DNA of 64,000 nucleotides from a virus. A program made the position numbers and the translations under genes. How positions within the stretch are numbered: the stretch's first letter is position 1; each line of letters starts with the position of its first letter. Below the pieces are notes generated by a model. It saw nothing but the letters and a program-made list of their open reading frames with translations, did not search any database and had not been told where the DNA came from. Where the stretch lies: positions 71,302-135,301 of the IMG/VR virus record IMGVR_UViG_3300027857_000001; one strand, given 5' to 3'. Of the stretch, positions 3,983 to 40,264 are shown one piece after another.

Positions 3983-4183
3983 CTATCCCGGGGTTACGCG
4001 CCGGTTCGTCACTCTGGCCCGGCTGACGGGCAGTCCCGCCCGGGGGCGCCGAATTGAGTGCGGGCACCCGGCCGTCACGCCGCCGTCCGGCCCCAGGATG
4101 ACCGCGTCCCGCCGGCCCTCTACCGGGACCTCCTTCACCCGGCTGGCAGGCACCATGACCAGCACGTAACGCTGCTCATCCAT
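3983..4183 (-). CDS. hypothetical protein
   Basis: MDEQRYVLVMVP after GGAGGACCGGA RBS, overlapping the GntR stop. Confidence 0.4.
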   Translation of the reverse strand: MDEQRYVLVMVPASRVKEVPVEGRRDAVILGPDGGVTAGCPHSIRRPRAGLPVSRARVTNRRVTPG

Positions 4184-4697
4184 TCCGGTCCTCCTGTTCC
4201 GGCCGTGCTTCCACAGACGCCCCGTCCAGGTCCCAGTCTCTTCCGGCCGCCTCGCGGATAAGCTCGCAGAGCCGGTCGGCCGCATGCCCGGAGTGCGCGG
4301 CGAGGATGACGGCCGCGACTGCTGGCCCGTCCCCGGCCAGTGCTGCGCCCACGGCCTCCGCCATAGGGTCATCCGCGACCACCGCCTCGAGCGCATCAAG
4401 AAGCCTGCCGTATGCATCGGCGTCGATACCGGGGGCCGCAAGGGCAATGCGGGCCACGACGGCGTAGCGGTGCAGAGGGAGGACTACCGTGCCGCGCCCG
4501 TCGCCGACTCTGGCCAGCCGCCACGCGACCAGCGTTTCCAGCGCCCTCTGGGCGACAGACTGGGTGACTCCGTACTCGCGGGCCATGGCCGGAGCGCCAG
4601 GCAGGGTGACACCCGGAGCCCACTCGCCGGCGAGTATCCGCTGCCGCAGGTCCCGCGCTACCTGTTCGTAGCGCGCCACTGGCGGCGTCAGCTTCAC
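4176..4697 (-). CDS. GntR-family winged-helix regulator (KorA/TraR-like)
   Basis: RYEQVARDLRQRILAGEWAPGVTLPG...AREYGVTQSVAQRALETL; start estimated at GTG 4697. Confidence 0.85.
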   Translation of the reverse strand: MKLTPPVARYEQVARDLRQRILAGEWAPGVTLPGAPAMAREYGVTQSVAQRALETLVAWRLARVGDGRGTVVLPLHRYAVVARIALAAPGIDADAYGRLLDALEAVVADDPMAEAVGAALAGDGPAVAAVILAAHSGHAADRLCELIREAAGRDWDLDGASVEARPEQEDRNG

Positions 4698-4852
4698 GCG
4701 GCGCTTCCCTCTCCTCCGTCTCCGGCTATCGCGCCCATCGTATTGCCGGTAACCGTTAACGCCTAGCTCCGGCGGATTGACATTTACGCGGGCAGGGGTC
4801 ATGGTTGGAGTATCTCACGGATAACGCTCAGAATTAATACGGAGATGACCGC

Positions 4853-5380
4853 ATGAGCACCTCCCTCCTTCCCTGGCTGATCGCCGCAGGCCTCGTCCTG
4901 GTGTGGCTGTTCAGCTGCGTCTCGGCCTGGTCCGATAACCGGTACGAGGTCACTGCCGTCTCGTCATGGCGTTTCCGTCTCACCCGCCGCTGGTACAGCA
5001 TCCGCAGTAGGGTCCGGTGCGGTGACCGCGGCGAGGTCTACGAGGTGCGCGACTGGTCCGATGACGGCACCGCCGTCCCGTGGCTGCTGGTCGCGAACTT
5101 CAACGGCGATCCTGACGACGTGTACTGGTGCCCGGTCACGGACTGCACCCCGTCCGCCGTCCGCCGGTTCCGGCCGCGCCTGCTGGTGGTCCGCTACGGC
5201 CGGATCCCGGTGCCGTGGCTGTTCCTGTTCTGGTACGAGCCGGCGCCCCGCCAGTGCAAGTACTGCGGCGAGCCTGCCACCTGCGAACACGACTCCGCCA
5301 TCAGCCACGGCGGGTGCCTGTGCGATGCACACCTGCTCGCGGCCGACCGGGTCCGCACCCGCGAGCAGGGTGCGTCATGA
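4853..5380 (+). CDS. hypothetical protein, N-terminal TM segment and C-terminal Cys motif
   Basis: ORF after an AT-richer intergenic stretch; stop overlaps the WhiB ATG. Confidence 0.55.
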   Translation: MSTSLLPWLIAAGLVLVWLFSCVSAWSDNRYEVTAVSSWRFRLTRRWYSIRSRVRCGDRGEVYEVRDWSDDGTAVPWLLVANFNGDPDDVYWCPVTDCTPSAVRRFRPRLLVVRYGRIPVPWLFLFWYEPAPRQCKYCGEPATCEHDSAISHGGCLCDAHLLAADRVRTREQGAS

Positions 5381-5670
5381 ACGGCCCGCCCCGAGCGTGG
5401 ATGCGGCACGCTGCGTGCCGTGATCTGCCGCTGACGCTCTTCTTCGGCCCGGACGGCGAAGATGCCGTAGCCCGCGCCGAGCGCGAGAAGCAGGCGAAAG
5501 CCGTCTGTGCCGGATGCCCTGTGCGCGTCGAGTGCCTGATGTACCGGCTGGGCTACCCGTATCAGCGGGATGACGGGATCTGGGCCGGGTTCGACGGCGG
5601 CCAGCGGGCTCAGCTCCGCCGCAGCGATCTCCGCCGCCAGCGCCACGCAGAGAGGACGGCGGCGGCATGA
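5377..5670 (+). CDS. whiB: WhiB-family Fe-S transcription factor
   Basis: W..HAAC...LFF...AKAVCAGCPVRVECL...GIWAG; four Cys plus a G-W-G-like turn. Confidence 0.92.
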   Translation: MNGPPRAWMRHAACRDLPLTLFFGPDGEDAVARAEREKQAKAVCAGCPVRVECLMYRLGYPYQRDDGIWAGFDGGQRAQLRRSDLRRQRHAERTAAA

Positions 5671-5873
5671 ACACCCTGTACGCCATCGTCGCCGCAATCG
5701 GCGCTCTCATCGCCGCCTGCCACCAGCACGTCACCGTCACGCTGGCCGGGCACGCCTTCGGCACCTCGCTGGGCGTGCTGATCCTGTGCACGGTCATCGC
5801 CGTCTGCATGGCCGCGACCGTGATCACGGTCCGGTCAGTGTTCTGGCCGGCCATGTCGCGGGTCGCCTCATGA
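5667..5873 (+). CDS. small membrane protein
   Basis: two hydrophobic segments, ATGA-coupled on both sides. Confidence 0.6.
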   Translation: MNTLYAIVAAIGALIAACHQHVTVTLAGHAFGTSLGVLILCTVIAVCMAATVITVRSVFWPAMSRVAS

Positions 5874-8200
5874 CGAGCCTCAACGGACACGGCGAGGATG
5901 AGGGCGGCCAGGTCATCGCCCTGCGGCCGGATTCCGGTGCGGATGCACAGGACTCCGGCCAGCCGCCCGGCCCGCCAATCCCGCCCGCGGTGGCCGCCGG
6001 TGACGGCGAGCCAGGCAAGCGCCGCCCCATCGTCCCCCCCGCGCTCGGCCGTGACCGCTGGCGGCAGACCGCCGGCGAATGGGCCGGGGAAACCTGCTAC
6101 CGGTGCGCGTATCACGCGGTCAGGTCACCGTGGTACCCGGTGTGGTTCAGCTTCCTGGCCGGCCGGGGCGGGTGGCGGCTGGTGAAGAAGCTAGCCCGCT
6201 GGTGGTCCGCACCTGAACTGAAGATCCTGGAATCCGAGGCTGTCGCCAGGGGCAATGCGGCCCACCACCAGGCGATGCAGGCCCATCTTGAAGGCACGCG
6301 GACCCGCAAGCGGCACGGCCAGATCGTCGGGGTCAGCGCGTTCCTGGCGGCCGGTGTCATCGCTGCGGCCCTGAAGTTCGCGCCCTGGTGGGCCTGGCCG
6401 CTCGCCGGATGCGCCACGTACCCGGTGCTGGTTTATCACGGCAGGCCCATCGGGAAGCCGATCATCCACTCGGCGATCGTCCCCCCGCAGTACCAGCCGC
6501 CGACGAAGGAGATCATCACCCAGGCGTTCGACAGCCTCGGCATCGGCAGGCTGAGCGCCCACATCAAGACGGCGGGCACGCTCGACTGGATCATCGACCT
6601 GCACAACGACAACGACGGCTGGGCGATCGAGCTTGACCTGCCCAAGGGCGTCACCGCGAAGATGATCATCGCCAAGCGCAAGGAACTGTCGTCCGGGCTG
6701 CGCCGCCCGCTTTCCGCCGTCTGGCCTGAAGCGGTTCCCGGAGAGCACGAGGGGCGCCTGTTCCTGTGGATCGGCCGCCGCGACCTGGCGAAGCAGAAGC
6801 CCGTCCCGTACCCGCTGCTGAAGTCCGGCACAGGGGACATCTTCCAGCAGGCGCCGTTCGGCACCCTCCCGCGCGGGACGAAAGTCACCGTACCGATGTT
6901 CCAGGCCAACTGGCTGGTCGGTGCGACCATGGGCAACGGCAAGACCGCGACACTCAGGGTGCTGCTGGCCTGGGCCGCGCTCGACACGGTGTGCGACCTG
7001 TGGATTCACGAGCACTCCGGCAAGGGTGACCTGGAGCCGTACGCGCAGGTATCCCACCGCTACGTGTCCGGGATCGATGACGAGTCCATCGCCTACACCG
7101 CCGAGTCCCTGCGCATGCTGCGCAGGGAACTGGAGAAGCGGCAGAAGATCTTCAAGACCATACCTGGGGAACGCAAGCCGGACGCCGCCCTGACCCGCGA
7201 GCTGGCGCTGGCCGACAGGCGGCTCCGCCCGATCGCGGCCGTGTTCGATGAGGCTCACAACGCCTTCAGCCATCCCAGGTACGGCGAGCAGATTGAGGCG
7301 GACATGGAGTTCGTCATGCGCCTCGGACGGGCCTACGGGATCATGATCTTCCTCGCGACCCAGCGGCCCGGCCAGGGCTCGATCCCGCCGGCCATCACCG
7401 CCGTGCTCGTGATCCGGTTCTGCCTGAAGGTCAACGACCAGGTCACTAACGACATGATCCTCGGCACCGGCTCATACACGGCGGGCTGGAACGCCGCCGA
7501 GTTCCGTCACGAGATAGACGCGGGCCTGGGCTGGCTGCGCGGGGCTGCCGAGCCCTGCGCGCCGAAGGTCTACTACCTCAACCTGCCCGCGACCAAGAAA
7601 GTCGCTGCCCGTGCGCGAGCGATGCGCGAGGCCGCCGGCGTGCTGTCCGGTCACGCGCTCGGCGAGGAGAACCCGGCGGAGGAAACCCGCGACTACCTCG
7701 CCGATGTCCTGTCGGTGTTCGGCACCGAACCGAACCTGTGGTGCAAGACCATCGCCGAGCGCATGCGTGACCGGATCCCGGGCGTCTACGCGGACACCAC
7801 TCCTGCTGCGGTCTCAAGCCAGCTCAAGGCGCGCGGAGTCACCGTGAAGAACGTCCGTGAGCCCGGCAGGGACCCGAACCTGGGATGCGAGCGCGCGGCT
7901 GTAGAGGCGGCACTGGCCGGCAAGGTCCCGGCCGCAGCGCCTGCTGAAGGGCAGCGGGCCGACCCGGAACTGCTGGCCCTCGCTGCCGAGCAGGTGATCA
8001 GCACCCAGCACGCGACGACCGCGATGCTCCAGCGCAAGCTCCGGGTGACGCACGCCGAGGCACTGGACCTGATGGCTGCGCTCGAGCTGGCCGGGATCGT
8101 CGGCACGGCGAGGGAAGGCTCGGTCTCGCGGGATGTCCTCGTGAAGCCGGACGGCCTCGGGGACGCGCTCGCGAGGGTGAAGGAGACGGCCGGTGTGTAG
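5870..8200 (+). CDS. traB: FtsK/SpoIIIE-type conjugative DNA translocase (TraB-like)
   Basis: TM segments; Walker A GATMGNGKT; Walker B AVFDEAH; LATQRP; C-terminal FtsK-gamma-like wHTH (TAMLQRKLRVTHAEALDLMAALELAGIVG). Confidence 0.88.
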   Translation: MTSLNGHGEDEGGQVIALRPDSGADAQDSGQPPGPPIPPAVAAGDGEPGKRRPIVPPALGRDRWRQTAGEWAGETCYRCAYHAVRSPWYPVWFSFLAGRGGWRLVKKLARWWSAPELKILESEAVARGNAAHHQAMQAHLEGTRTRKRHGQIVGVSAFLAAGVIAAALKFAPWWAWPLAGCATYPVLVYHGRPIGKPIIHSAIVPPQYQPPTKEIITQAFDSLGIGRLSAHIKTAGTLDWIIDLHNDNDGWAIELDLPKGVTAKMIIAKRKELSSGLRRPLSAVWPEAVPGEHEGRLFLWIGRRDLAKQKPVPYPLLKSGTGDIFQQAPFGTLPRGTKVTVPMFQANWLVGATMGNGKTATLRVLLAWAALDTVCDLWIHEHSGKGDLEPYAQVSHRYVSGIDDESIAYTAESLRMLRRELEKRQKIFKTIPGERKPDAALTRELALADRRLRPIAAVFDEAHNAFSHPRYGEQIEADMEFVMRLGRAYGIMIFLATQRPGQGSIPPAITAVLVIRFCLKVNDQVTNDMILGTGSYTAGWNAAEFRHEIDAGLGWLRGAAEPCAPKVYYLNLPATKKVAARARAMREAAGVLSGHALGEENPAEETRDYLADVLSVFGTEPNLWCKTIAERMRDRIPGVYADTTPAAVSSQLKARGVTVKNVREPGRDPNLGCERAAVEAALAGKVPAAAPAEGQRADPELLALAAEQVISTQHATTAMLQRKLRVTHAEALDLMAALELAGIVGTAREGSVSRDVLVKPDGLGDALARVKETAGV

Positions 8201-8242
8201 GACCAGGACCCCGGAAACCGTTAAACATCTCCTACAGCCCCG

Positions 8243-8368
8243 GACCTGCGAAGACATGGAGCGCGATAACGGGCGCTACAGAGTGCGGGCCTGTGACCTG
8301 CGATGTTATGCGGGACCTACACAGGCATCACGGCGCGCGGAATGGCAGTCCCTAGGGAGCACCTGCAC
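8243..8368 (+). repeat. spaced ACCT(G/A)C repeats downstream of traB (candidate clt)
   Basis: GACCTGCGA 8243 and 8295, GACCTACAC 8314, CACCTGCAC 8360 in a non-coding gap. Confidence 0.35.
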
Positions 8369-8388
8369 AAGACGGAGGATCAGCGGGC

Positions 8389-9009
8389 GTGCGGATCTCG
8401 GTATCGCTGATCCGCTGCGGCCGGTGCGGGAAGACCTACTCCCGTCCGCTCGGGCACGTCTGCGTCACCAGTGCCACGAGCAAGCGCAGGACACGGCGCA
8501 CTGCCTTCCGGCCGCACGTCTCGCTGACCTGCTCGAAGTGCGGCAAGCCGCTCGGCAACCCGCTCACACACACCTGCACGGTCCGCACCGACTGGAAGAA
8601 GCGGGCCGCCGCTGCCGAGCGGAAGCGCAAGGCCTCGGAGAAGCGCCGGAAAGCCGCGCCGGCGAAGGCTGCGGCGAAGGCCCGCCGGAAGGCCGCGGCT
8701 GGTGTCCGCCGCGCCGCCGAGCGGGAACGCCGCAAGCAGGCCGTCGCCAGGGCCGTAGCCGCCGAGCGCGCCCGGAACGAGAAGGCACGCAGGCGTGCAG
8801 CCAGCCAGACCCACGACAGGACACGCCATGAGCCTCAGAGCTGCGGGGACCTCAATTGCCACCGCTACCCGTGCCGCATCTGGCGTGAAGCTTCCGAGGC
8901 CGGCCACCTGCGCGGACTCGCCGAGGGCTACGCGAAGGGCTACGCCGACGGGTACGCGAGCGGCTACCCGGACGGGATCAGGGCGTGTCCCCTTCCCCAC
9001 CAGGGGTGA
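8389..9009 (+). CDS. Cys/His-rich basic hypothetical protein (two Zn-finger-like motifs)
   Basis: CGRCG..HVC and CSKCG..HTC motifs; basic coiled coil; GGAGG RBS. Confidence 0.65.
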   Translation: MRISVSLIRCGRCGKTYSRPLGHVCVTSATSKRRTRRTAFRPHVSLTCSKCGKPLGNPLTHTCTVRTDWKKRAAAAERKRKASEKRRKAAPAKAAAKARRKAAAGVRRAAERERRKQAVARAVAAERARNEKARRRAASQTHDRTRHEPQSCGDLNCHRYPCRIWREASEAGHLRGLAEGYAKGYADGYASGYPDGIRACPLPHQG

Positions 9010-9012
9010 GGC

Positions 9013-9345
9013 ATGCTGATCGCCGTCCTGGCCGTCGTCGTCGCTGCGTGCGCCAGCCACGGTGCACTAGCGCTGATCCTCGCCATGTTCGCAGCCGTCA
9101 CCGTGTACGTGCTGGTCACGCTCGTGCACCCGGTGCACCGCTGTGTGCGGTGCCGGGGACGGCGGGTCATCGTGCACGGGAGCCGTGCACAGGCATGCCG
9201 GCCCTGCAGGGCGTCCGGCCGTACCAGGCGGCTGGGCGCCCCGGTTATCCACCGTCTCGCCTGGTCGCTCATCGGCCCGGCGCTCCGCTCTGTGCTGGAA
9301 GTACGCCACGAGGAGCTGCGCGAGAAGGCGGGGTACCCGGAATGA
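9013..9345 (+). CDS. membrane protein with CxxC Zn-finger-like motifs
   Basis: two TM segments, then CVRCRG and CRPCRASG. Confidence 0.65.
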   Translation: MLIAVLAVVVAACASHGALALILAMFAAVTVYVLVTLVHPVHRCVRCRGRRVIVHGSRAQACRPCRASGRTRRLGAPVIHRLAWSLIGPALRSVLEVRHEELREKAGYPE

Positions 9346-9773
9346 GCTGTCCTGGCCTCCACTGCCCCGGCTGCGGGTCCTGCTCGGGCGGCGGCGGCCA
9401 GCTCGCTGCGTGGGCGCTGCTGGCCGCCGCCGCGACCGGAGTCCTGTCGTGGCTCGCAGCCCGCATCTGGTGGATCGCCGGGGCGGCAGCCGGAGCTCTC
9501 GCCCTCGCGATCCTCGCCGCCGTCCTGCTGCGCCGTGCCATGCACCGGATGCGGGCGGCCGACCTGGCGCAGCTCGCCGCGACGCACAAGACCATCGCCG
9601 CCGAACGGAAGCCGCAGGTCACGAAGGTGACGCCGACCGCGATCACGAACCACTACCACGGGCCCGAGGTCCACTTCCACGGCGCGGGGGCGGCTGAGGC
9701 TGCAGTCCGCGCCATGCAGCAAGCGATACCCGGGCAGGCCGGGGACGCCATCACCGGAAGGAACGAGCGATGA
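9342..9773 (+). CDS. membrane hypothetical protein
   Basis: MSCPGLHCPGC then two TM segments; coupled ORF. Confidence 0.6.
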   Translation: MSCPGLHCPGCGSCSGGGGQLAAWALLAAAATGVLSWLAARIWWIAGAAAGALALAILAAVLLRRAMHRMRAADLAQLAATHKTIAAERKPQVTKVTPTAITNHYHGPEVHFHGAGAAEAAVRAMQQAIPGQAGDAITGRNER

Positions 9774-9952
9774 CCAAGTCAGTCAGCGGATCGCGCCGCG
9801 CTGACGGCAAGCCAGAGACGGCAGCCGACAAGCGGTTCTTCGACCTGCGCGAGTCCGGCTACACCGGGCCGATCGACCAGGACGGCCGCGTCCCCGCCGA
9901 GGACCGTCCAGCGCGCGGGATCCTCCACGCGCTCCGCAAGCGCGAGGCGTGA
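9770..9952 (+). CDS. small hypothetical protein (RFFDLRESGYTGPIDQDG)
   Basis: ATGA-coupled, GC3-rich. Confidence 0.6.
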   Translation: MTKSVSGSRRADGKPETAADKRFFDLRESGYTGPIDQDGRVPAEDRPARGILHALRKREA

Positions 9953-9956
9953 CGTC

Positions 9957-10625
9957 ATGACCCACTTCACCCTAATCAGGGCCCGGTCCCAGCCTGACGG
10001 CATCCTGCCCGGCAGTGACAACACAGGCCAGCCGCCTATTGTCACGGCCAACCCGCGCTGCCTGCTGCCCTCGGAGGTATTCGGCGACACCGAGACGGAA
10101 CTGCTCGGGCACGCCTGGGAACTGGCCGGACTGGAGCCGCGCGGGCCGGTCACCGAAGACGAAGGCGACGCTGAGTGCCCGGACGGCTGGACCATCACGA
10201 GTCGCACGGCGGACCTGTCCGCGATGCTCGGACCGCAGGCCGCCCAGATCCTCGACGCGATCGCCGAGGCAGAGAAAACCCTGGTCAGCGGCGGTCCTGG
10301 CGACGCGACAGAGGTCGCGGAGGCGTACCACGCTGCTGTCGAGGCGGACTACCGGGCCATCGACACCGCGGCCGACGCCGCAGTCGCCGCGCTGGAAGCG
10401 TACGGAGCGGACGGGGACTGGTGGGCCGGGATCGGCGCCTGCCAGTACGGCCGGGGCGAGATCCTCGCCCTCGCCGCCCGCGACCTCACCGGCACCACGA
10501 CGGAATGGGCACAGGAGGCTTACGGCACCCTGACCCGGCCCTGGCTGACCGCATTCGGTCGGCCGGTTCACCCAGATGACAAGACGGCTACGGCCGGGAA
10601 GGAACAGTTATGCCACTCCCAGTAA
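9957..10625 (+). CDS. hypothetical protein
   Basis: 222-aa ORF in the rightward operon. Confidence 0.55.
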   Translation: MTHFTLIRARSQPDGILPGSDNTGQPPIVTANPRCLLPSEVFGDTETELLGHAWELAGLEPRGPVTEDEGDAECPDGWTITSRTADLSAMLGPQAAQILDAIAEAEKTLVSGGPGDATEVAEAYHAAVEADYRAIDTAADAAVAALEAYGADGDWWAGIGACQYGRGEILALAARDLTGTTTEWAQEAYGTLTRPWLTAFGRPVHPDDKTATAGKEQLCHSQ

Positions 10626-10930
10626 TGACCCCTGAGCAGCGCGCCGAGGCGCTCCGCAAGGCCGCCGCATCCCGCGCCGCCAGCTCGGCCGCGCTCGCGA
10701 AGGTCCGCAGCGGAGAGATCACCGTCGCCGACGTCCTCGACAGCGACGACTCCCCGCTGCTGGCCGCACCCGTCCGCCGCGTCCTGCTCGCCGTCCCCGG
10801 CATCGGCTCCGCGAAGGCGGACAAGATCCTCGCCGAGGTCGGCATCGACGGGAAGCGGCGCTTCCGGGGCCTCGGCGTCCAGCAGCGGGCCATCCTGCGT
10901 GACCTCGCCGAGAAGTTTCCCGCACCCTGA
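10610..10930 (+). CDS. mihF: actinobacterial integration host factor homologue
   Basis: MPLP.MTPEQRAEALRKAAA.R...VRRVLLAVPGIGSAKADKILAEVGI...RRFRGLG..QR (H2TH fold of mIHF/sIHF). Confidence 0.88.
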   Translation: MPLPVMTPEQRAEALRKAAASRAASSAALAKVRSGEITVADVLDSDDSPLLAAPVRRVLLAVPGIGSAKADKILAEVGIDGKRRFRGLGVQQRAILRDLAEKFPAP

Positions 10931-10937
10931 CCCTCCA

Positions 10938-10978
10938 TCCCGCACCCGCCCGGTCCCCGCTTCCGGGCGGGTGCGGGA
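10938..10978 (+). terminator. 16-bp-stem hairpin after mihF
   Basis: TCCCGCACCCGCCCGG-9 nt-CCGGGCGGGTGCGGGA. Confidence 0.65.
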
Positions 10979-11013
10979 ACCGCCCCGAAGACGACAACCC
11001 GAGGACACCTGAC

Positions 11014-12300
11014 ATGGCACCCCTTACGCTCCCGAACCCGCCGCGCTTCTGGCGCAAAGGCGAGACGCTGGCGTGGCCTCAGCGCAAGCAGGACGACGCC
11101 AGGACCGCCATCGACGGCGACACGGTGATACGCCTGCTGACCGCCTTCGTGGTCCTGGCGGTCGCAAGCTTTGCGGCAGTGATCAGCTACAGCCATATCT
11201 TCTTCCTCGGACGCCACCACGGCCAGGATGGCACTGCCGCGCGGCTGCTGCCGCTGTCGGTCGACGGGCTGATCGCCGCCGCGTCTCTTGTCATGCTCCA
11301 CGCGGCAAGAAACAGGCTCTCGGTGCCGTGGCTGGCGCGCGCCATGCTGGCAACCGGCGTCGGAGCCACCGTCGCCGCCAACGTGGCGTATGGCCTGCCC
11401 TTTGGCGTTGCTGGCGCACTGGTCAGCGCATGGCCTGCCGTCGCGTTCGTAGGCTCGGTTGAGATGGCCGTCCGGTTCGTGCGTGACGCACGCCATGCCG
11501 CCACGGCACCGGCAGTAGAGCAGACAGAACACCGGACAGCCGGCCGGACAGAAACCGGCGCCGAAGGCGACAGCAAAACGGCAGATGCCCAGGCCGGCTC
11601 TGACAACCTGCCGGACAGAGACTTGGCCAGAATGCCGGACAGCGTGGCGGACAGGGACCGCCGCGAACGCCGCCACCGCCAGCCGTCAGCACGCGCCCGC
11701 GCCGTCACCACGCTGCGCCGCAACCCGGCACTGACTGACGCCGAAGTGGCGAAGAAAACTGGCGTGTCGGAGCGCACTGTCCAGCGCGCCAGGGAAGACC
11801 TCGCGGCGACGGCCAAATTACAGAGGAGCAGACCCATGACCACGACAGAGACCGGGCAGCCATACGAGCGCACCGACGGCCCGGTGAACCTGTGGTTCAG
11901 CCTCAGCTACGCGAACTTCCTGGTGTGGCACCGGACCCACATGCAGTCGATGCCGCTGGACTGGCAGGACCGTTTCGTGGAGCTGGCGGAAGAACTCGAG
12001 GCGGCCTTCCCGGACCACGCGGCGACCGGGTACGAGGTCGCCACCGTCCGCGACGCGTACGTCAGCGAGCTGACCGTTGCCGAGATGGAACAGCTCGGCA
12101 TCACCGCGGATGGCGAATCCGGTGAGTACTACGACCGCAACGGCCGGACCCTCCACAGCTTCCAGCATGTCGGCATCCCGGTCCCCGACCCGGTTCCGCA
12201 CTACCGCCGGTCTTACCTGCCTCCCGATGAGGAGGCCATAGCTGCTGTCCGGGCAGCCCGCACTGCGAATCACTGTAGTGATGACCGGTTATCCGGCTGA
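11014..12300 (+). CDS. DUF2637-like membrane protein with HTH, in frame with a second phage-type domain (internal RBS and ATG at 11836)
   Basis: AAVISYSHI..LLPLSVDGL..ATVAANV..AWPAVA; GAGGAG precedes ATG 11836 with no intervening stop. Confidence 0.75.
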   Translation: MAPLTLPNPPRFWRKGETLAWPQRKQDDARTAIDGDTVIRLLTAFVVLAVASFAAVISYSHIFFLGRHHGQDGTAARLLPLSVDGLIAAASLVMLHAARNRLSVPWLARAMLATGVGATVAANVAYGLPFGVAGALVSAWPAVAFVGSVEMAVRFVRDARHAATAPAVEQTEHRTAGRTETGAEGDSKTADAQAGSDNLPDRDLARMPDSVADRDRRERRHRQPSARARAVTTLRRNPALTDAEVAKKTGVSERTVQRAREDLAATAKLQRSRPMTTTETGQPYERTDGPVNLWFSLSYANFLVWHRTHMQSMPLDWQDRFVELAEELEAAFPDHAATGYEVATVRDAYVSELTVAEMEQLGITADGESGEYYDRNGRTLHSFQHVGIPVPDPVPHYRRSYLPPDEEAIAAVRAARTANHCSDDRLSG

Positions 12301-21478: not shown

Positions 21479-21792
21479 TTCTTGCCTCCTGTTTCCGGGT
21501 GGCATACGCCGCATTTGCAGCCGGCCCGGTGGGCGGCGGTGACTGGCGCGGGGGTCCTGGCGGCTGGCTGTGGTGGTGATACAGGCTCAGCCGGGCCCGC
21601 GCTGGTGGTTATACGGGTGGTTATACCGGTGGTTATACGCGGGGCGTCCATGGCGAGCTTCTCCTCGATGGCGCTGACGACGTAGGCGGTCACGGTCACG
21701 TTCCGCTCGCCGGCGGCGGCCTTCAGGGATGCCATGAGGTCAGCCGGGATGCGGAATGCTGTCTGCGTGGTCTTGTGGATTCCGCTGGGCAT
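21475..21792 (-). CDS. ribbon-helix-helix (Arc/CopG-like) DNA-binding protein
   Basis: TQTAFRIPADLMASLKAAAGERNVTVTAYVVSAIEEKL. Confidence 0.7.
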   Translation of the reverse strand: MPSGIHKTTQTAFRIPADLMASLKAAAGERNVTVTAYVVSAIEEKLAMDAPRITTGITTRITTSAGPAEPVSPPQPAARTPAPVTAAHRAGCKCGVCHPETGGKK

Positions 21793-21979: not shown

Positions 21980-22256
21980 GGAGTCAGGCCCGGGTCTCTG
22001 CCCGGGCGGGGGCGCGGGTACCTGCTCCTCATCTGCCTCCTGGCGTGACTGCCGGCAGTCCCAGCACGGGCACCCGCGCTCGTGCGGCCAACTCAGGATA
22101 GAAATCGGTCACCGCTCCACTCCTTCCTGGTCGCACAGCACCTCCAGCTCCTCGGTGCTGAGATCGTCGAGCCCGCACGTGACCGCCAGCCGTTCTGCTG
22201 CCTCCTCGTGGCCGGCGCTCACCTCGGCGAGTATGGCCGATGCGCAGACGGCGTCG

Positions 22257-29330: not shown

Positions 29331-30995
29331 GTGGCCCGAAGGCGCAAGACGGGGATGCGGGGCGGTGACCTGGTGCCTGCTCCTCCTGGCATGACCCTGG
29401 CCGAGCAGGAACTGGCGGCGCTCGAGGAGCTCACGGCGCTGAAGGCGAAACTCGCATCGGTGAGGGGCCGGGGGATCGCCCGGTACGTGCACGACCCGCT
29501 CGGGTTCGTCCAGAACGCGGTCAGGTTCAGGCCCGGCGGCGGCCTCGCCGCCTACCAGGCCGAGATCATCGCGGACCTGCCCCGGATGAGGCGGATAGCG
29601 GTCAGGGGACCGCGGGGGCTGGGCAAGAGCTGCCTGGTCTCCCTGATCGTCCTGTGGTTCGCGCTGACCCGCGACGCGGCGGGGACCGACTGGAAGATCT
29701 GCACCACTGCCGGGTCGTGGGCTCAGCTTGAGAGCTACCTGTGGCCTGAGATCGCGAAGTGGGCGAACAGCATCGACTGGGCCGTGATCGGCCGGGAGCC
29801 GCTCAGCCCCCGCAGTGAGCTGATGAGAACCCAGATGCGCCTGCGGCACGGCCTGGCCCTCTCCGCCTCCCCGGAGCGGCCCGACGTGATCGAGGGGCTT
29901 CACGGTGACAGCGTCCTCGTCGTGATCGACGAGGCGAAGATCGTCTCGCCGGGCATCTTCGACTCGATCGAGGGCGCGTTCTCCGGCGCGGGTGACGGCA
30001 GCGACCTCGAGGCGTACGCGCTCGCGTTCTCGACGCCTGGCGAGCCGTCAGGCCGGTTCTACGACATCCACACCCGCAAGCCCGGCCTGGAGGACTGGCA
30101 TGTCCGGCATGTCACCCTCGGCGAGGCGGTAGCGGCGGGCCGGATGACCATGTCGTGGGCGCGGCAGCGGAAGAAGCTGTGGGGCGAGACCAGCGCCCTG
30201 TACCAGAACCATGTCCTCGGCGAGTTCTGCGCTGACGATGAGGACGCCGTCATCCCCCTCGCGTGGGTGGAGGCGGCGTTCGAGCGATGGCGGGAGTGGG
30301 ACCGGGACGGCCGCCCGGACCAGGACGGCGTGAAAGCCGTCGGCGTCGACGTCGCCCGTTCCGGCACCGACCGGACCGTCGCCGCGGTCCGGCACGGCGA
30401 TGTGCTCACCGGGCTCGCCGACTGGGCGAAAGCAGACACGATGATCACGACGGGGCGGGTCAGGGGCATCCTGGAAGCAGACCCGGAAGCCACCGCGGTC
30501 GTCGACGTCATCGGCATCGGCGCTGGGGTCTACGACCGGCTCCGGGAGCAGGGCTGCCGCAGCGACCCGTTCAACGCGGGACGCAAGACCACGCGGCGTG
30601 ACAAGACAGGCCAGTTCGGGTTCTGCAATGTGCGGGCCGCGGCCTGGTGGAACCTGAGGGAACTGCTCGAGCCGCCGGCGTCCCGGCTCGCGATCTTCCC
30701 CGACGACCAGCTCGCGGGGGACCTCACCGCGATGCACTACAAGCACACCAGCGACGGGAAGATCCAGGTCGAGTCCAAGGACGACATCCGCAGGCGCATC
30801 GGCCGGTCCACCGACCGCGGCGACGCGGTCATGCAGGCGTTCTGGATGTCGGCCGGGTCGTGGGCCGACGCGTACGGCACCACCGGCTGCCCGGCCTGCG
30901 GCAGGTCGTTCATGAAGGAAGCAGACGGGAAGCTCCGGACGCACTGCCCGCACTGCCGGAAGCCGCTAGACGAGCCCGAGAGTGAGGTCGCATGA
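29331..30995 (+). CDS. terL: terminase large subunit
   Basis: Walker A GPRGLGKS, Walker B VVIDEAK, FSTP coupling motif, RNase H-like VGVDVARSGTD and STDRGDA. Confidence 0.92.
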   Translation: MARRRKTGMRGGDLVPAPPGMTLAEQELAALEELTALKAKLASVRGRGIARYVHDPLGFVQNAVRFRPGGGLAAYQAEIIADLPRMRRIAVRGPRGLGKSCLVSLIVLWFALTRDAAGTDWKICTTAGSWAQLESYLWPEIAKWANSIDWAVIGREPLSPRSELMRTQMRLRHGLALSASPERPDVIEGLHGDSVLVVIDEAKIVSPGIFDSIEGAFSGAGDGSDLEAYALAFSTPGEPSGRFYDIHTRKPGLEDWHVRHVTLGEAVAAGRMTMSWARQRKKLWGETSALYQNHVLGEFCADDEDAVIPLAWVEAAFERWREWDRDGRPDQDGVKAVGVDVARSGTDRTVAAVRHGDVLTGLADWAKADTMITTGRVRGILEADPEATAVVDVIGIGAGVYDRLREQGCRSDPFNAGRKTTRRDKTGQFGFCNVRAAAWWNLRELLEPPASRLAIFPDDQLAGDLTAMHYKHTSDGKIQVESKDDIRRRIGRSTDRGDAVMQAFWMSAGSWADAYGTTGCPACGRSFMKEADGKLRTHCPHCRKPLDEPESEVA

Positions 30996-33197: not shown

Positions 33198-33224
33198 CGG
33201 TCAAGCATGGCATGGTGGTGATCC

Positions 33225-36499: not shown

Positions 36500-39400
36500 A
36501 TGGCATCTCCTCAGGCCATCTTGCGTGCTGCCAAGGCTGTTCCCGGCGCCCGGCCGACACCGCCGCCCCAGGGTGCGAATATCGGCATCGGGCGGATCTC
36601 GCCGCTGGCGTGGGACCTGTCTGAGGATGCCGGATACGCCAGGGCCTATGCCCCTTTCATGCCCCGGCCTGCGAGAACCTTTACTTCCGGCGCCTTCGGG
36701 CCGTTCTCGCCTATCCTTCCTGTCCCTGTGGACGAGCCACCTCCGGGCGGCCAGCTTCCCGACCCGCGCCGCTTCGACTACCCCGTCGGCTGGAACCTCC
36801 CGACCATCCCCGGCCAGGACGGCTTCCGGATGGCCTCGTTCGCCGTGCTGGACACGGTCAGCCGCCTCTACTCCGTCGCGCGTACCTGCATCGAGCGGCG
36901 CAAGGCGGCCATTGTCGGCATGGACTGGGACATCGTCCCGACCCGGGAGGCATCCAAGGCGTATCAGGGTTCTCACTCGGCGATGCGCGACTTCGGGAAG
37001 CGCCGCGCTAAGGCTGTCGCGTTCTTCAACCAGCCAGACCGCGACTTCGACGACTTCGGCGGGTTCCTGTCTGCCCTGCTGGAACAGGTGTTCGTAAACG
37101 ACGCGATGTCGCTGCTGCTCAAGCCCGTGCGCGGCCGGGGCCTGCGCAAGGGCGTGCTCGGGTCAGACCTCGACTGCCTGGGGCTGGTTGACGGCAGCAC
37201 CATCAGACCGCTCCTGTCCCTGTCAGGCGGGCGGCCTCGTCCTCCCGCACCCGCCTGGCAGCAATTCCTGAAAGGCGTGCCCAGGTCCGATATCAGCGCG
37301 ATGCTGAGCGGCCAGGACATCGAGGACGCCGGGCTGACAGCCTACGCGGGACCGGCGTTCCGCACCGACCAGATGATCTACCGTCCCGTCGTCCCGCGTG
37401 TGAACTCCCCTTACGGGTTCAGCATGGTCGAGATGGCGCTGCTGGTCATCATGACCGGGCTGCGCAAGCAGGCGTACCAGGCCCAGTACTACGACGAGGG
37501 AACGGTCCCGGCGGTTTACCTCAGTCCCGGTGACACCAGTATCACGCCGAGCCAGATCCGGGAGCTTCAAGACGCTCTCAATGGCTTCGCCGGGGACCCG
37601 GCCTGGCACCACAAGATCATCGTCACGCCGCCCGGGACCACCATCCACCCGATGCGGCCCTCGCAGCTCGCCGACCAGTTCGACGAGGTCATCATGAGCC
37701 AGGTCGCGATGGTCTTCGACGTGGACCCGATCTCGCTCGGCCTGGTCCCCAACGTGTCCTCGACCGTCTCCCCGTTCGCCGCAAGGGAGATGGCGCAGGC
37801 CAGCCGCACCGTTCACGAGCGCACCAGCACGAAGCCGCTGCTGAAGTACCTGTGCTCCATCTTCAACGCGATCCTGCACCGAGTCCTCGGCCAGGACGAC
37901 ATGAAGTTCACGTTCGCCGGCATGGACGAGGCGGCGGACCAGGCGGCCGTCACGGACCTGCTGGTGAAGCAGGTCCAGAACGGCATCCGCAGTGTCGACG
38001 AGGCGCGGGAGGAACTGGAGCTGACCCCGTGGGGACTGCCGGAGACCTCAGGGCCGGTCGTGTTCACGCAGGCCGGCGTCATGCCGTTCGAGTGGGTTCC
38101 GGGGATGGCCGTCGCCCAGGCCGAGGGCGCCTCGGGGCCGTACAGCGGCGAGACGGCACCATCGACGAAGCCGGGCGGTCCGCACGGGGATACCCGGCCG
38201 CTCGGGGTTCATCACCCGCCGTCGTCGCGGCCGTGGACAGGCTCCCGTGACCTGCAGCACATCAGGCCGGACAGGCCGCCGTCCCGTGCGCCGGTACCGT
38301 CCGGCGCGGGACGCACCGGGCACACGCCGGCGCACTCGGCCGCGGAAGGGCACACCGCGGTGTCAAGGCAGGACGGCAGGGCGAAGGCTGTCAGGTCTGA
38401 GCTTGAAGCGCTGAGCAGGCACCTGCGCAAGGGCCGCGCCGTCTCGACGTGGGAGCCCCGCCACCTGTCCGGGCAGGTGATGGCGGTCATCGCCGAGGAT
38501 CTCACCAAGGGGCTCGGTGCCGACGAGGTCATCAGGGGCGCCATGACCGTCGCGCTGCCGCGTGGCGAGTACGAGCGGTCGGACAAGCCGGAGGGCGCTG
38601 CGGTCCCGGGGCATGAGCGGCGGATCGCCGGGGCGTTCGAGGACGCGGCCGCGCACGCCGGGCGGCTCGTAGCGCAGGCGCGGTCAGGGGAGCTGGCTCT
38701 CCCGGTGCCGGAGCTTGCCGCGAAGATCCTGTCGGTGCTCCGCGCCAGCCTCGGGCCGGTGCTGCGCGGCGTGCACCGGGACGCATGGGCAGCCGGGAAA
38801 GACGAGGCCGCCTCGGCGCTCCGGATCACGTCGGCCGGTGATGAGCAGGAGCGGGAAGCGTGGATCGCCTCGCAAGGGCGTGACTGGCTGGAGGCCGTCT
38901 GCCGCACCGCCGGACCGGAGCTTACCCGGCTGCTCGCGGCCCCCGGCCCGGTCACTGAGGATGCTGTGGCCGCCGTGCTGGGTGCCGGGCAGCGGCCGGC
39001 CCTGATCGCGTGCACGGAGACGGCGAGGGCACGGAACGCCGCTGCGCTCAGTGTCATGCAGCACGCCGGGGTGCAGCGGAAGCGGTGGTTGCCGGACGGC
39101 GGCAGTGTGTGCGCCGCGTGCCGGGCGAACGCGGAGCAGGGAGCAATCCCGCTTGCCGCCCCGTTCAGCTCCGGGGACGTCGCGGGGCCAGCGCACCCTG
39201 GCTGCTCCTGCGGCGTGGCCGCAGGACCGCGGGACGCGGCGAAGCTCGCCAGGCGCGCCGCTGACCTGAACGGCGAGGTCTGGTGGCCGCAGGGCTCATA
39301 CCCGTCCGGTCCGGCGGCGGGAGGCGGCGGCCGGATGGTCCCGGCGCATGACGCCGACGGCACCGAGTACCTCGTGCCCGGCGGGGTGCCGGGGATGACC

Positions 39401-40264
39401 GCAGGCGGCGAGCCGCCGCGCCAGGACGGAGACGGTCCCGGCCCGGTGACGGAGGACGCACCCGGCACGGTCAGCGCCGGGCGCGGCGACGTGCACACGC
39501 TGGGCGGCGGGACGGCAGGTCTGTACCGGGACCTGAGCGACCGGACGCACGCAGGCAGCCCGGACAGCGCCGATGACGCGGCATGGCCAGGAACCCGCGG
39601 CATCCCGCCGGGGCGCGATGCGTCGTGGCCGCTGCAGGGCTACATGGGCGGCTACTGGCCGCAGGGCGGCCACGGGACAGGGCAGTCACCGGGAACCAGT
39701 GCAGGCAGCGCAGACCGGGGCAGGGCACCCGGAGCGCACGGCAAGGCCGCATCCGGGTACGACCTGAGCCGGCGATCCGGGATGATCTCCCTCGACCTCC
39801 CGGCGGGACTCGTCAGGCCAGTGCCCGGCGGAGTCAGTGATCATCACGTCACGATCTGCTACCTAGGCAACGACGTGACAGATGAGCAGTTCGCGCTGGC
39901 CTGCCTCCGCGCCTCCGCCGCTGCCGCGCTCATGCCGGGCCCGCTGTGCGGTGTCATCTCCGGCCGCGGGACCTTCGAGCCGTCCGCCAGCAGCGACGGG
40001 AAGGTACCGGTGTGGGCCGGGGTGATGCTGCCCGGCGCGGAGATCCTGCGGGAAGCACTCGCGGACCTGTCCGCCAGCGAGTTCAGCCGGTGGCTCCCGC
40101 ACGTGACGCTGGCCTACCTGGACCCGGCGGACCCGCTGCCGGACCCGGTGACTCCTGTCCCGGTGACGTTCACGCACATCAGCGTGCACCGCGGTGGCGA
40201 CGTGGAACGGTTCGAGCTGGGCGTGCCGCTGACGCAGCGCGCCCTGGCCGGAGCCGCAGCATGA
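36500..40264 (+). CDS. portal protein fused to a MuF (head morphogenesis) domain and a C-terminal 2H phosphoesterase
   Basis: portal motifs (YGFSMVE, QVAMVFDVDPISLG, GIRSVDEAREELEL); MuF (TETARA..RKRW..CAAC..HPGCSC); 2H motifs HVTICY and PHVTLAY. Confidence 0.88.
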   Translation: MASPQAILRAAKAVPGARPTPPPQGANIGIGRISPLAWDLSEDAGYARAYAPFMPRPARTFTSGAFGPFSPILPVPVDEPPPGGQLPDPRRFDYPVGWNLPTIPGQDGFRMASFAVLDTVSRLYSVARTCIERRKAAIVGMDWDIVPTREASKAYQGSHSAMRDFGKRRAKAVAFFNQPDRDFDDFGGFLSALLEQVFVNDAMSLLLKPVRGRGLRKGVLGSDLDCLGLVDGSTIRPLLSLSGGRPRPPAPAWQQFLKGVPRSDISAMLSGQDIEDAGLTAYAGPAFRTDQMIYRPVVPRVNSPYGFSMVEMALLVIMTGLRKQAYQAQYYDEGTVPAVYLSPGDTSITPSQIRELQDALNGFAGDPAWHHKIIVTPPGTTIHPMRPSQLADQFDEVIMSQVAMVFDVDPISLGLVPNVSSTVSPFAAREMAQASRTVHERTSTKPLLKYLCSIFNAILHRVLGQDDMKFTFAGMDEAADQAAVTDLLVKQVQNGIRSVDEAREELELTPWGLPETSGPVVFTQAGVMPFEWVPGMAVAQAEGASGPYSGETAPSTKPGGPHGDTRPLGVHHPPSSRPWTGSRDLQHIRPDRPPSRAPVPSGAGRTGHTPAHSAAEGHTAVSRQDGRAKAVRSELEALSRHLRKGRAVSTWEPRHLSGQVMAVIAEDLTKGLGADEVIRGAMTVALPRGEYERSDKPEGAAVPGHERRIAGAFEDAAAHAGRLVAQARSGELALPVPELAAKILSVLRASLGPVLRGVHRDAWAAGKDEAASALRITSAGDEQEREAWIASQGRDWLEAVCRTAGPELTRLLAAPGPVTEDAVAAVLGAGQRPALIACTETARARNAAALSVMQHAGVQRKRWLPDGGSVCAACRANAEQGAIPLAAPFSSGDVAGPAHPGCSCGVAAGPRDAAKLARRAADLNGEVWWPQGSYPSGPAAGGGGRMVPAHDADGTEYLVPGGVPGMTAGGEPPRQDGDGPGPVTEDAPGTVSAGRGDVHTLGGGTAGLYRDLSDRTHAGSPDSADDAAWPGTRGIPPGRDASWPLQGYMGGYWPQGGHGTGQSPGTSAGSADRGRAPGAHGKAASGYDLSRRSGMISLDLPAGLVRPVPGGVSDHHVTICYLGNDVTDEQFALACLRASAAAALMPGPLCGVISGRGTFEPSASSDGKVPVWAGVMLPGAEILREALADLSASEFSRWLPHVTLAYLDPADPLPDPVTPVPVTFTHISVHRGGDVERFELGVPLTQRALAGAAA

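Follow-up and report, generated by a model that had tools for sequence, protein, structure and literature searches.

A probable TraB-type dsDNA-transfer gene module in a circular tailed-phage genome from soil

The stretch of DNA analysed here (the window, 64,000 nucleotides) is part of a circular virus genome from soil in IMG/VR (G000; 135,174 bp). At positions 4176–12300 it carries a module in which a GntR gene is divergent from a co-directional operon holding WhiB, TraB, IHF and DUF2637 genes; every gene of the module has an uninterrupted frame and high GC3, with coupling through 4-bp overlaps. The GntR-family regulator (4176..4802, minus strand; Pfam PF00392, 1.2e-14) is Kor/TraR-like and shows weak matches to the GntR of plasmid pSVH1 (4.6e-6) and to pZL12.80; L003, L010, L077 and several chromosomal loci likewise have such a gene upstream of traB. 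Given the weak coding signal over 4700–4800, translation of the regulator may actually begin 3' of the first ATG. The short divergent regulatory region (4803..4852), read directly from the sequence, is AT-rich for this genome and represents a putative operator; around this gap are found a TTGACA hexamer (4779–4784) and a small palindrome (4827–4844).

The first gene of the operon (4853..5380, plus strand, like all of the operon genes; GC3 0.90) encodes a 175-aa protein with a Cys-rich C-terminus and a predicted TM segment at residues 5–23, for which family searches returned no match. It is followed by a WhiB-like Fe-S transcription factor (5377..5670; Pfam Whib, 6.9e-16), whose gene overlaps the adjacent genes by 4 bp and which is also located upstream of traB in L001, L077, L078, G001 and G002. 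The third product is a 68-aa small membrane protein with two to three hydrophobic segments by hydropathy (5667..5873; GC3 0.94). Its gene is translationally coupled to traB, and a gene of about 60–70 aa immediately precedes traB in L001, L003 and L077 as well.

The TraB-type FtsK/SpoIIIE dsDNA translocase (776 aa) is encoded at 5870..8200. An earlier note on this DNA had described a TraB-like translocase with a winged helix-turn-helix (wHTH), reading it from an open reading frame at 5570–8200; the FtsK_gamma domain, Walker motifs and ATQRP motif bear out this description, and the start was moved to 5870 because, in the GC3 frame plot, the WhiB and 68-aa genes fill 5377–5873. The protein comprises, in order, an N-terminal membrane region (hydrophobic segment at aa 152–170), an ATPase core (Walker A, ATMGNGKT; Walker B, IAAVFDE; ATQRP), a conserved wHTH-like region at about aa 605–680 and an extra FtsK-gamma wHTH at about aa 696–776. 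The C-terminus corresponds to FtsK_gamma (PF09397, 3.8e-12), a domain which in FtsK reads polar chromosome motifs and contacts XerD, and the protein also matches FtsK/SpoIIIE in PHROG (1.3e-19). A profile built from 23 homologues matched the FtsK motor 2IUT (9e-16) and the gamma domain 2J5O (4.5e-7), and their alignment is invariant at G355, G357, K358 and T359 of Walker A, D460 and E461 of Walker B, and T497, Q498 and R499. The best annotated relatives are TraB/FtsK proteins of small actinomycete plasmids and AICE-like elements (37% identity, E 1e-88) rather than chromosomal FtsK; the TraB of pSVH1 is 29% identical over 344 aa (E 5e-33; tblastn E 2e-25). No close homologue was found among the cultured phages of a 50,697-record collection.

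Five small genes lie 3' of traB (8389–10625), three of whose products contain zinc-ribbon and/or membrane segments. The 206-aa protein (8389..9009) possesses two zinc-ribbon-like motifs (CxxC...HxC), a strongly basic stretch rich in Ala, Arg and Lys, and a tail rich in GY; it yielded no match in family and plasmid searches and is a conserved partner of TraB, with a homologue directly 3' of traB in most loci. The second conserved partner (110 aa; 9013..9345) combines one membrane segment with a zinc ribbon, and its gene includes five copies of GTGCAC (9062–9185). Further downstream are a 143-aa protein with two membrane segments by hydropathy (9342..9773), which has a homologue in L003 and is Spd-like by kind, not by homology; a translationally coupled 60-aa protein (9770..9952; GC3 0.88); and a 222-aa acidic protein (9957..10625; GC3 0.84), without a match in the family search and 58% identical to its L003 homologue. 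The membrane accessory genes of the earlier note correspond to four open reading frames (4853–5380, 5667–5873, 9013–9345 and 9342–9773), their TM segments being hydropathy predictions. The actinobacterial IHF (mIHF/sIHF-like; 10610..10930; NCBIfam actino_IHF, 8.9e-26; Pfam H2TH_5, 3.3e-11) occupies an equivalent position in L001, L003, L008, G001, G002, L077 and L078. The operon ends with a DUF2637 membrane protein of 428 aa and about four TM segments (11014..12300; PF10935, 3.7e-11; HTH_23; PHROG 733 and 3527), in which the HTH is central and the C-terminal domain is common to Streptomyces plasmid proteins; in AICE-like plasmids and many chromosomal loci the DUF2637 gene is immediately upstream of traB. 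The GntR, WhiB and DUF2637 genes, together with a DUF932 gene at 23432–24529, had all been named in the earlier note and are confirmed here.

Array A (8194..8323, plus strand), directly 3' of the traB stop, is a clt candidate containing five direct copies of [GT]GACC and three direct and one inverted copies of CTACA[CG], flanked by the inverted repeat TGTGTAGGACC / GGACCTACACA. Its position and layout are like those in pSVH1, where a GACCCGGA array (four direct and one inverted copies) is located within about 100 bp 3' of traB. The post-traB site holds four copies of CTACAC in L036 and arrays of four to six copies in many other relatives; taken alone, array A is statistically weak. Array B (11533..11655, plus strand) is the stronger of the two. 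It consists of five direct sCGGACAG copies within the DUF2637 gene, spaced by 12, 67, 24 and 12 bp and falling in two different reading frames, and is highly non-random (corrected P about 7e-6 in the window). The CGGACA core is common to four other elements, in different reading frames (L001, 12 copies; L008 and L029, nine each; L026, six), in each case on the strand of traB, and either within or next to the DUF2637 gene or a short way 5' of traB. Neither array could be tied to TraB, comparison of the wHTH recognition region with the CGGACA arrays gave no clean covariation, and array B could serve a protein other than TraB.

Elsewhere in the window, the large terminase subunit (TerL; 29391..30995, plus strand; PHROG 2, 3.6e-38) is 53% identical to that of Actinoplanes phage phiAsp2 and 50% to that of Streptomyces phage TurkishDelight. 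The portal is fused to MuF-like and C-terminal enzyme domains (36500..40264, plus strand; PHROG 2662, 1.9e-56; Pfam Phage_portal). It is followed by a NUDIX-domain protein with a weak ParB-like N-terminus (40261..41328, plus strand; Pfam NUDIX, 1.1e-16), which is 34% identical to the NUDIX protein of the AICE-like plasmid L004 and 29% to pZL12.76c; the protein may have a Pif-like role in conjugal immunity. A tail completion protein is encoded at 60452–60928, and the tape-measure-like gene (60975..63998, plus strand) crosses the contig junction to continue at genome positions 3–1601 and weakly resembles the tape-measure regions of G001 and G002. The module had been described as contiguous with the head and tail genes of a prophage. 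It does reside with them on one circular contig, but it is not adjacent to them, lying about 17 kb from TerL with early and replication genes between; the prophage label was dropped, the element being a free circular assembly, not in a chromosome.

The order of GntR, WhiB, TraB, the two partner genes, IHF and DUF2637 is repeated in at least seven other large phage-type contigs, including G001 (92 kb), G002 (106 kb), L001 (124 kb), L003 (127 kb), L077 (133 kb), L078 (96 kb) and L008. Three of these are complete circular phage genomes with little else in common with G000. Among them, G001 and G002 each encode a TerL, portal and tape measure of their own, plus a major head protein in G001, and outside the module their matches to G000 are scattered and mostly weak. 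The TraBs of the module-bearing phages group in one well-supported clade (SH-aLRT 99), to which, apart from one short MAG contig, the extra gamma domain is limited. In independent assemblies from other samples, the module is likewise associated with phage lysis genes. The TraB of G003 clusters with chromosomal copies, and exchange between islands and phages therefore happens; the family also has members in AICE-like surroundings that include an integrase and/or a prim-pol/YfjI-type Rep (L004, L011, L013, L044 and L046).

Like G000, pSVH1 (NC_007431, Streptomyces venezuelae), a model of single-protein dsDNA conjugation, has a GntR-divergent operon of small and membrane-protein genes around a TraB of about 770 aa with an N-terminal membrane segment, ATPase and C-terminal wHTH. 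This arrangement and the TraB homology uphold the earlier comparison with actinomycete single-protein transfer loci. pSVH1 is, however, a 12.6-kb rolling-circle plasmid with its own Rep, as opposed to a 135-kb phage; the G000 TraB has a second wHTH (FtsK-gamma), the two have different repeat motifs, and no SpdB2 homologue was detectable in the window, the DUF2637 protein included. No homology was detectable between the small accessory proteins and characterised Spd proteins. AICEs (pSAM2, SLP1 and pMEA300 types) and NZ_CP107792-like plasmids share with G000 an FtsK/SpoIIIE-type Tra, a GntR Kor-like repressor, a DUF2637 protein beside tra and a NUDIX (Pif-like) gene. An AICE is defined by Int, Rep and Tra in one compact island of 9–24 kb (PMC3218068), whereas the Rep of the AICE types was not found in G000 and its sole integrase-like gene lies amid phage genes, about 43 kb from the module.

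From the gene content, homology, synteny, conservation among phage genomes, repeat arrays and lack of insertion marks, all directly visible, we infer with somewhat better than even confidence that 4176–12300 is an intact TraB-type dsDNA-transfer module, long-standing and integral to a tailed-phage lineage, rather than a neighbouring AICE; expression, DNA binding and any transfer by the module are presumed. GntR would repress the divergent operon in the fashion of Kor/TraR repressors. Upon relief of repression, TraB would form a membrane-anchored hexameric pump, whose C-terminal winged-helix domains would recognise short direct repeats on the circular phage genome, the candidate sites being array A, directly after traB, and the sCGGACAs repeats of array B. 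The pump might then move dsDNA, without prior processing, into an adjacent hyphal compartment or into another mycelium in contact with it, with the small zinc-ribbon/membrane proteins and the DUF2637 protein as putative Spd-like spreading factors and IHF perhaps introducing a bend where the pump loads onto the DNA. Transmission of the phage would then be twofold: by virions from one mycelium to another, and by pumping of DNA from cell to cell, either inside a mycelium or between mycelia. Since the same block occurs in several phage genomes that are not related, virion-free spread from cell to cell may be open to these phages too. Conjugation requires a living donor, a need at odds with lytic growth unless expression of the operon falls in the lysogenic state. 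G000 has a xis-like gene besides the distant integrase-like gene, and integration via the latter is one possible way for a transferred copy to establish. Virion competence is likewise presumed, because no clean identification of the major capsid gene was obtained and the best candidate for it looks interrupted. No RNA runs containing G000 sequence were found.

The translocase block may instead have come from conjugative elements and now have a role within the phage in place of intercellular transfer, which we consider rather unlikely while taking it seriously. Within a single mycelium, the block could pump or segregate the phage genome through sporulation or vegetative septa; alternatively, it could manipulate host development with WhiB and IHF, or exclude superinfecting or competing DNA. 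Actinophages often carry whiB, ftsK and parB, and developmental manipulation has been proposed (PMC10117723). WhiB and IHF are integral to the block, FtsK-gamma was gained in the phage clade and is absent from AICE-type TraBs, and the Par and Rep genes for plasmid establishment were not found in G000. Transfer, on the other hand, is favoured by the affinity of TraB with plasmid and AICE proteins and by the retention of a full AICE-like accessory set (GntR, DUF2637, two partner genes and clt-like arrays). The two readings also overlap, because TraB/Spd systems spread DNA across the septa of one mycelium as well.

That an AICE or its remnant was inserted in the phage genome as passive, perhaps decaying cargo appears very improbable. 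The five AICE-like contexts and the island–phage exchange seen with G003 would fit such an origin, but no att-like direct repeats were found bracketing the module, nor an integrase or Rep at it, nor a serine recombinase; its genes are intact and coupled, and its composition is that of the genome (tetranucleotide delta 0.1035 versus a genome mean of 0.121; GC 0.696 in both). Word depth is even over 1–20 kb (15–29x), without a coverage break, and a 7.9-kb contig spans the right border of the module. Flanks and coverage speak against the separate AICE that the earlier note had considered, as do the synteny in other phage-type contigs and the traB phylogeny, with its own phage clade. We also regard it as very improbable that the 135-kb circle is a conjugative plasmid with a defective prophage or phage-tail-like cluster, or a chimeric assembly, and hence no dual-route element. 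The genome is a metagenome assembly from a single sample, its sequence was present in one sequencing run only, probably its source, and two IS5-type and three TnpB genes are dispersed over it; the doubtful capsid gene points the same way. Against this, TerL, portal, tail completion protein, tape measure, tail fibre and GH25 lysozyme are all intact, no relaxase-type gene was found in G000 (nor Par or Rep, as above), IMG/VR rates the genome 100% complete with terminal repeats, independently assembled Logan contigs reproduce the sequence at even depth and span the right module border, and assemblies from other samples pair the block with phage lysis genes.

The idea of dual spread is not new in principle, because of the precedent of pZL12, a cultured Streptomyces plasmid-phage whose tra locus was reported to be required for conjugal transfer (Zhong et al. 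2010, J Bacteriol 192:3747). Like G000, pZL12/phiZL12 (GQ919031) is a tailed-phage genome with an FtsK/SpoIIIE-type Tra gene and a GntR gene nearby; its tra gene and adjacent genes border the virion operon, and a NUDIX gene lies in the tra region. The two are nevertheless unrelated, sharing four weak protein matches only, and the Tra proteins can hardly be aligned (22% over 129 aa, E 4e-4). Whereas pZL12 carries ParA/ParB and is kept as a plasmid, G000 is integrase-bearing and without par genes; the extra gamma domain in TraB and the WhiB, IHF and DUF2637 genes in the block are further distinctions of G000. Furthermore, pZL12 has been termed a singleton (PMC7157519), in contrast to the recurrence of the G000 block in many phage-type genomes. 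Streptomyces phage Gilgamesh, a tailed actinophage of similar size (129 kb), also carries an FtsK-like translocase gene, the product of which is only 25% identical to the G000 TraB over 38% of the protein.

The 64-kb window is the final portion of a single 135,301-bp contig, the ends of which overlap by 127 bp to give a circle of 135,174 bp; in IMG/VR the genome has direct terminal repeats and is rated 100% complete. Such a circular assembly is equally compatible with a plasmid, a replicative form or a circularly permuted virion genome. On gene calls by third-position GC, the genome (GC content about 70%) contains about 200 genes, arranged as long co-directional runs. Several virion and lysis genes of a tailed phage were recognised. 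The large terminase (29391-30995) matches PHROG 2 (3.6e-38), Actinoplanes phage phiAsp2 (53%) and Streptomyces phage TurkishDelight (50%). The portal gene (36500-40264) joins the portal to MuF-like and C-terminal RNA-ligase/2H-like regions (PHROG 2659 and 14859, aa 1082-1241). Further genes encode a tail completion protein (60452-60928), a tape-measure-like protein, whose gene spans the contig junction, a 1287-aa tail-fibre-like protein carrying lectin and carbohydrate-binding domains, and a GH25 lysozyme. Matches to PHROG and other families and proteins gave no clean identification of a major capsid gene in this genome. The best candidate appears as a pair of ORFs separated by about 2 kb, and a DUF559 endonuclease-like ORF (48488-49345) lies in the gap. 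The first (46974-47510) has no match; the second (49467-50513) matches only a PHROG that has no annotation and, in a Thermoanaerobacterium phage, a hypothetical protein; it is a C-terminal piece that aligns solely to positions 203-483 of that 491-position PHROG.

The putative transfer module (4176-12300) begins with a GntR regulator (4176-4802, minus strand). Divergent from it is a run of co-directional, partly overlapping genes, composed of a 175-aa membrane/Cys-rich protein, a WhiB protein (5377-5670, co-directional with the translocase), a 68-aa membrane protein and a TraB-type translocase of 776 aa (5870-8200). After a 189-bp gap, traB is followed by genes for a basic protein with two zinc ribbons, a protein that combines a single membrane segment with a zinc ribbon, a two-TM protein and two small/acidic proteins, after which an actinobacterial IHF and a DUF2637 membrane protein with an HTH close the module. 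All of the features named in the earlier note, namely the GntR regulator, a TraB-like translocase with a wHTH, membrane accessory genes, DUF2637, WhiB, DUF932 and head and tail genes, are present. For the translocase, both the family and the winged helix were recognized correctly, but the 876-aa ORF proposed at 5570-8200 was rejected, since the frame plot places the start at 5870.

The TraB protein carries Walker A (ATMGNGKT), Walker B (IAAVFDE) and FtsK-type ATQRP (LATQRP) motifs that are invariant across 23 homologues, and its profile matches the FtsK motor 2IUT (9e-16), as befits an ATPase core of the FtsK/SpoIIIE type. Its similarity to the experimentally characterised TraB of the Streptomyces venezuelae plasmid pSVH1 amounts to 29% identity over 344 aa (E 5e-33 in blastp, 1.5e-36 in phmmer). 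A membrane anchor is predicted near the N terminus, where a hydrophobic segment (aa 152-170) is followed by a second hydrophobic stretch (Kyte-Doolittle), and the C terminus harbors an FtsK_gamma domain (Pfam 3.8e-12; PDB 2J5O 4.5e-7) together with a conserved wHTH-like region (aa 605-680). In its ATPase core, homology to a characterised TraB, predicted membrane anchor and C-terminal winged helix, the protein has the sequence features of a TraB-type translocase. The closest annotated relatives are FtsK/TraB genes of small actinomycete plasmids, pSVH1 among the best of them; the identity is 37% to a gene of an 18-kb AICE-like Streptomyces plasmid that contains an integrase, a prim-pol, DUF2637, NUDIX and GntR. 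No close homologue was found in cultured phages, the nearest being an FtsK-like gene of Streptomyces phage Gilgamesh (25%). At the DNA level, the module had no near-identical match among 50,697 phage and 72,556 plasmid records. The zinc-ribbon partner (8389-9009) has no match in plasmid records, and Pfam, PHROGs and NCBIfam returned low-complexity noise only. Like pSVH1, the model TraB plasmid, the module follows a GntR-divergent operon plan; no similarity was detected between SpdB2 of pSVH1 and the DUF2637 protein.

Single-protein locus searches of IMG/VR and GTDB genomes gave nothing, and related loci were recovered with an alignment query. Across about 50 such loci, the conserved core comprises traB and the two genes that follow it. 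The DUF2637 gene is located just upstream of traB in AICE-like loci, and downstream of it in the present phage and its nearest kin. The full synteny (GntR or another regulator, WhiB, a tiny gene, TraB with gamma, partner genes, IHF and DUF2637) recurs on 124-, 127-, 133- and 96-kb contigs from other samples, beside holin or endolysin genes; the 124-kb relative forms a contig by itself in the NCBI assemblies GCA_037025365.1 and GCA_037025285.1. The synteny also occurs in two circular IMG/VR genomes of 92 and 106 kb, each with its own terminase, portal and tape measure, as well as a major head protein in the 92-kb genome; outside the module, these two share only scattered, mostly weak matches with the 135-kb genome. 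A quick maximum-likelihood tree (IQ-TREE, with SH-aLRT as sole support) places seven TraBs of these phage-type contigs in a single clade (SH-aLRT 99) that has no chromosomal member. Among the loci compared, the extra gamma domain is confined to these seven TraBs and one 4.6-kb MAG contig. A 69-kb circular phage genome also encodes traB and its two partners; its TraB has no gamma domain and clusters with TraBs encoded on Spirillospora and Actinomadura chromosomes, which indicates that exchange with islands also occurs. A further locus, on the 41.9-kb Pseudonocardia alni plasmid pPaSha2 (CP052773), contains DUF2637 and FtsK/TraB genes as a pair, with a holin, a phage Bet recombinase and an integrase fragment on its flanks. 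This element, deposited as a plasmid from a cultured strain, may be another phage-like carrier of a TraB module.

In pSVH1, the 8-mer GACCCGGA, which we take to be the published TraB recognition sequence, is repeated four times in direct and once in inverted orientation in the roughly 100 bp that follow traB. Repeated 8-bp motifs have been described as the sites recognised by TraB. The window contains two candidate arrays for such a cis-acting transfer site (clt). Array A (8194-8323) occupies the same position as the pSVH1 repeats and consists of five copies of [GT]GACC and four of CTACA[CG] inside an inverted repeat; the closest non-gamma TraB locus has four copies of CTACAC there, and arrays of 4-6 copies occupy this position in many relatives. 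The statistical case for array A by itself is weak. Array B (11533-11655), inside the DUF2637 gene, has five copies of sCGGACAG, with spacings of 12, 24 and 67 bp and in two reading frames (corrected P about 7e-6). Its core is found in four other elements (12, 9, 9 and 6 copies), always on the traB strand and located either within or next to the DUF2637 gene or a short way upstream of traB. Covariation of the TraB wHTH region with the repeat motifs gave no clean signal for the CGGACA group, and linked neither array to TraB. Three members of a single sub-clade have a GGTA[AG]C-type array, which was set aside as a case of covariation, as shared ancestry explains it equally well. RepAM of pMEA300 reportedly binds 8-bp repeats that lie within the RepAM gene (PMC2440964); array B could therefore serve as an origin, or as a binding site of the DUF2637-HTH protein, instead.

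Phage infection and conjugation are mostly regarded as alternative routes of gene transfer, as in a recent plasmid-mobility review (PMC12282955). One documented actinomycete element is reported to use both: the cultured plasmid-phage pZL12 ("Streptomyces phage ZL12", 90.4 kb), cited as requiring its Tra and adjacent genes for transfer, and described in PMC7157519 as a singleton. Its FtsK-like Tra, two adjacent genes and a GntR regulator are located beside the virion operon. pZL12 and the 135-kb genome are unrelated, with four weak protein matches and Tra proteins that can barely be aligned. Unlike pZL12, the present kind of element has an added gamma domain, incorporates WhiB, IHF and DUF2637 into the module and recurs across phage genomes. 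The principle is thus known from pZL12, and the 135-kb genome represents an independent recruitment, with a different TraB clade. Where pZL12 has ParA and ParB, the 135-kb genome has an integrase-like gene. Maintenance genes of the sort that define phage-plasmids such as P1 or pZL12 were not found: ParA (AAA_31) and ParB_N are absent from the 135 kb, and no plasmid Rep was recognised in a Pfam scan that covered about 60 of the approximately 200 genes. A DUF3631 protein and an HA-domain helicase are present.

The earlier note had left room for a separate AICE lying next to the phage, which att sites or breaks in coverage would reveal. Read-word depth in a soil metagenome run, probably the source sample, is even over the first 20 kb (15-29x), the right border of the module is bridged by a 7.9-kb contig from another assembler, and no att-like repeats bracket the module, apart from short imperfect ones expected by chance at 70% GC; a neighbouring AICE is therefore not indicated. 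This run is the only DNA run with the stretch and, as the probable source, is not independent; no RNA runs containing the stretch are listed. Small "joints" in the contig lay-down, with sides of 20-49 nt and low depth, were treated as cross-matches from other organisms. The window contains no tRNA by tRNA scan, and hence no tRNA-type att site near the module, and Rfam at gathering thresholds had no match in the entire window. By definition (PMC3218068), an AICE is a single compact island that unites Int, Tra and a Rep of the RepSA, RepAM or Prim-Pol type, an arrangement that the module does not show. No serine recombinase was detected in the genome, and the integrase that the note had suggested looking for in the flanks is not there; a single tyrosine-recombinase-like gene (sub-threshold), with an xis-like neighbour, lies about 43 kb from traB. 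Prim-pol and YfjI Rep queries from an AICE-like plasmid matched nothing in the genome. The composition of the block is typical of the genome as well, with a GC of 0.696 in both, and 48 of 64 genome windows deviate more than the block from the genome tetranucleotide signature. Like AICEs, the genome does encode a GntR regulator of the Kor type and a NUDIX Pif-like gene, but the latter (40261-41328) is 28 kb away, in the head-gene region. An inserted AICE is accordingly an unlikely origin of the module.

We also consider it unlikely that the record represents a plasmid or an assembly artefact. The main rival is an exapted role of the module, intracellular or developmental, which we regard as doubtful. 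The conjugation reading put forward in the note is supported, as far as sequence can show, by the TraB homology and the pSVH1-like operon plan. On balance we lean towards reading the module as an integral, probably functional system of TraB-type DNA transfer in a tailed-phage lineage; the integrase-like and xis-like genes of this lineage were seen in the one genome examined.

A broader proposal is advanced more tentatively: mycelial Streptosporangiales may host a lineage of true "conjugative phages", in which a gamma-bearing, TraB-type conjugative pump is a core gene. Its members would have genomes of 92-135 kb that share little else, and their TraB would have gained the gamma domain, which the chromosomal and AICE copies do not possess. 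The genome would be moved routinely both by virions and by dsDNA pumping between hyphae, and the gamma domain may steer loading onto phage-specific repeats or couple transfer to the phage tyrosine recombinase. If so, pZL12 would no longer be a singleton oddity, but an example of a strategy common in filamentous hosts. The TraB module described here differs from that of pZL12 and is unrelated to it; in several complete tailed-phage genomes from soil Streptosporangiales, it forms a conserved block specific to one clade. If the module works, the phage genome could spread through and between the mycelia of filamentous bacteria without virions. This would alter the understanding of lysogeny establishment, plaque containment, host range and receptor-based resistance in these hosts, and would bear on whether such sequences are classed as viruses, plasmids or ICEs. 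Testable handles are available in the gamma domain, which is specific to the phages, and in the conserved sCGGACAs arrays.

Several additional features of the genome were recorded. Minor contigs at about 5x (versus about 20x) in the soil run carry several substitutions at the start of traB (5741-6152), which points to another variant in that sample, closely related to this element. The gene at 40261-41328, directly after the portal, combines a weak ParB-like N terminus with its NUDIX domain. In pSAM2, the NUDIX protein Pif is a conjugal-immunity factor, and by analogy the phage gene may be a functional partner of the transfer module. A 993-aa DEAD/ResIII helicase with seven tandem HA (helicase-associated) domains (12270-15251, minus strand; Pfam 2.5e-112) abuts the module on the opposite strand. 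Outside the window, the stretch at genome positions 32522-35600 includes the gene of an unusual 548-aa tyrosine-recombinase-like protein, in which a LacI-type HTH is inserted between a SAM-like N-domain and a sub-threshold catalytic domain; the gene adjoins a 1.1-kb non-coding region full of GCTGAGAC-containing repeats. Three TnpB/IS605 OrfB-type genes (Cas12f1-like TNB domain) are distributed over the genome, one in the window between terminase and portal (33653-35119, minus strand) and two at genome positions 21845-22993 and 50761-51948, along with two IS5-type DDE transposases at 20.5-24.4 kb of the genome. TnpB is also found near the module on the 133- and 96-kb contigs. Palindromic GTGCAC occurs five times in 125 bp (9062-9185), inside the small TM/zinc-ribbon gene, compared with eight occurrences in the first 22 kb of the window; this is the top hexamer cluster of the window scan (p about 4e-11). 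At least eight GGTGGTTATAC-type repeats form two clusters in a non-coding, relatively AT-rich stretch between small genes (21572-21986), and look like an operator or iteron array, possibly marking an immunity region or an origin. Finally, glycosyltransferases (GT17-like, GNT-I-like and GT1) and a fused GT1-FkbM methyltransferase-SHOCT protein adjoin the lysis genes at genome positions 9928-14873, outside the window, a cluster that suggests phage-directed glycan modification.
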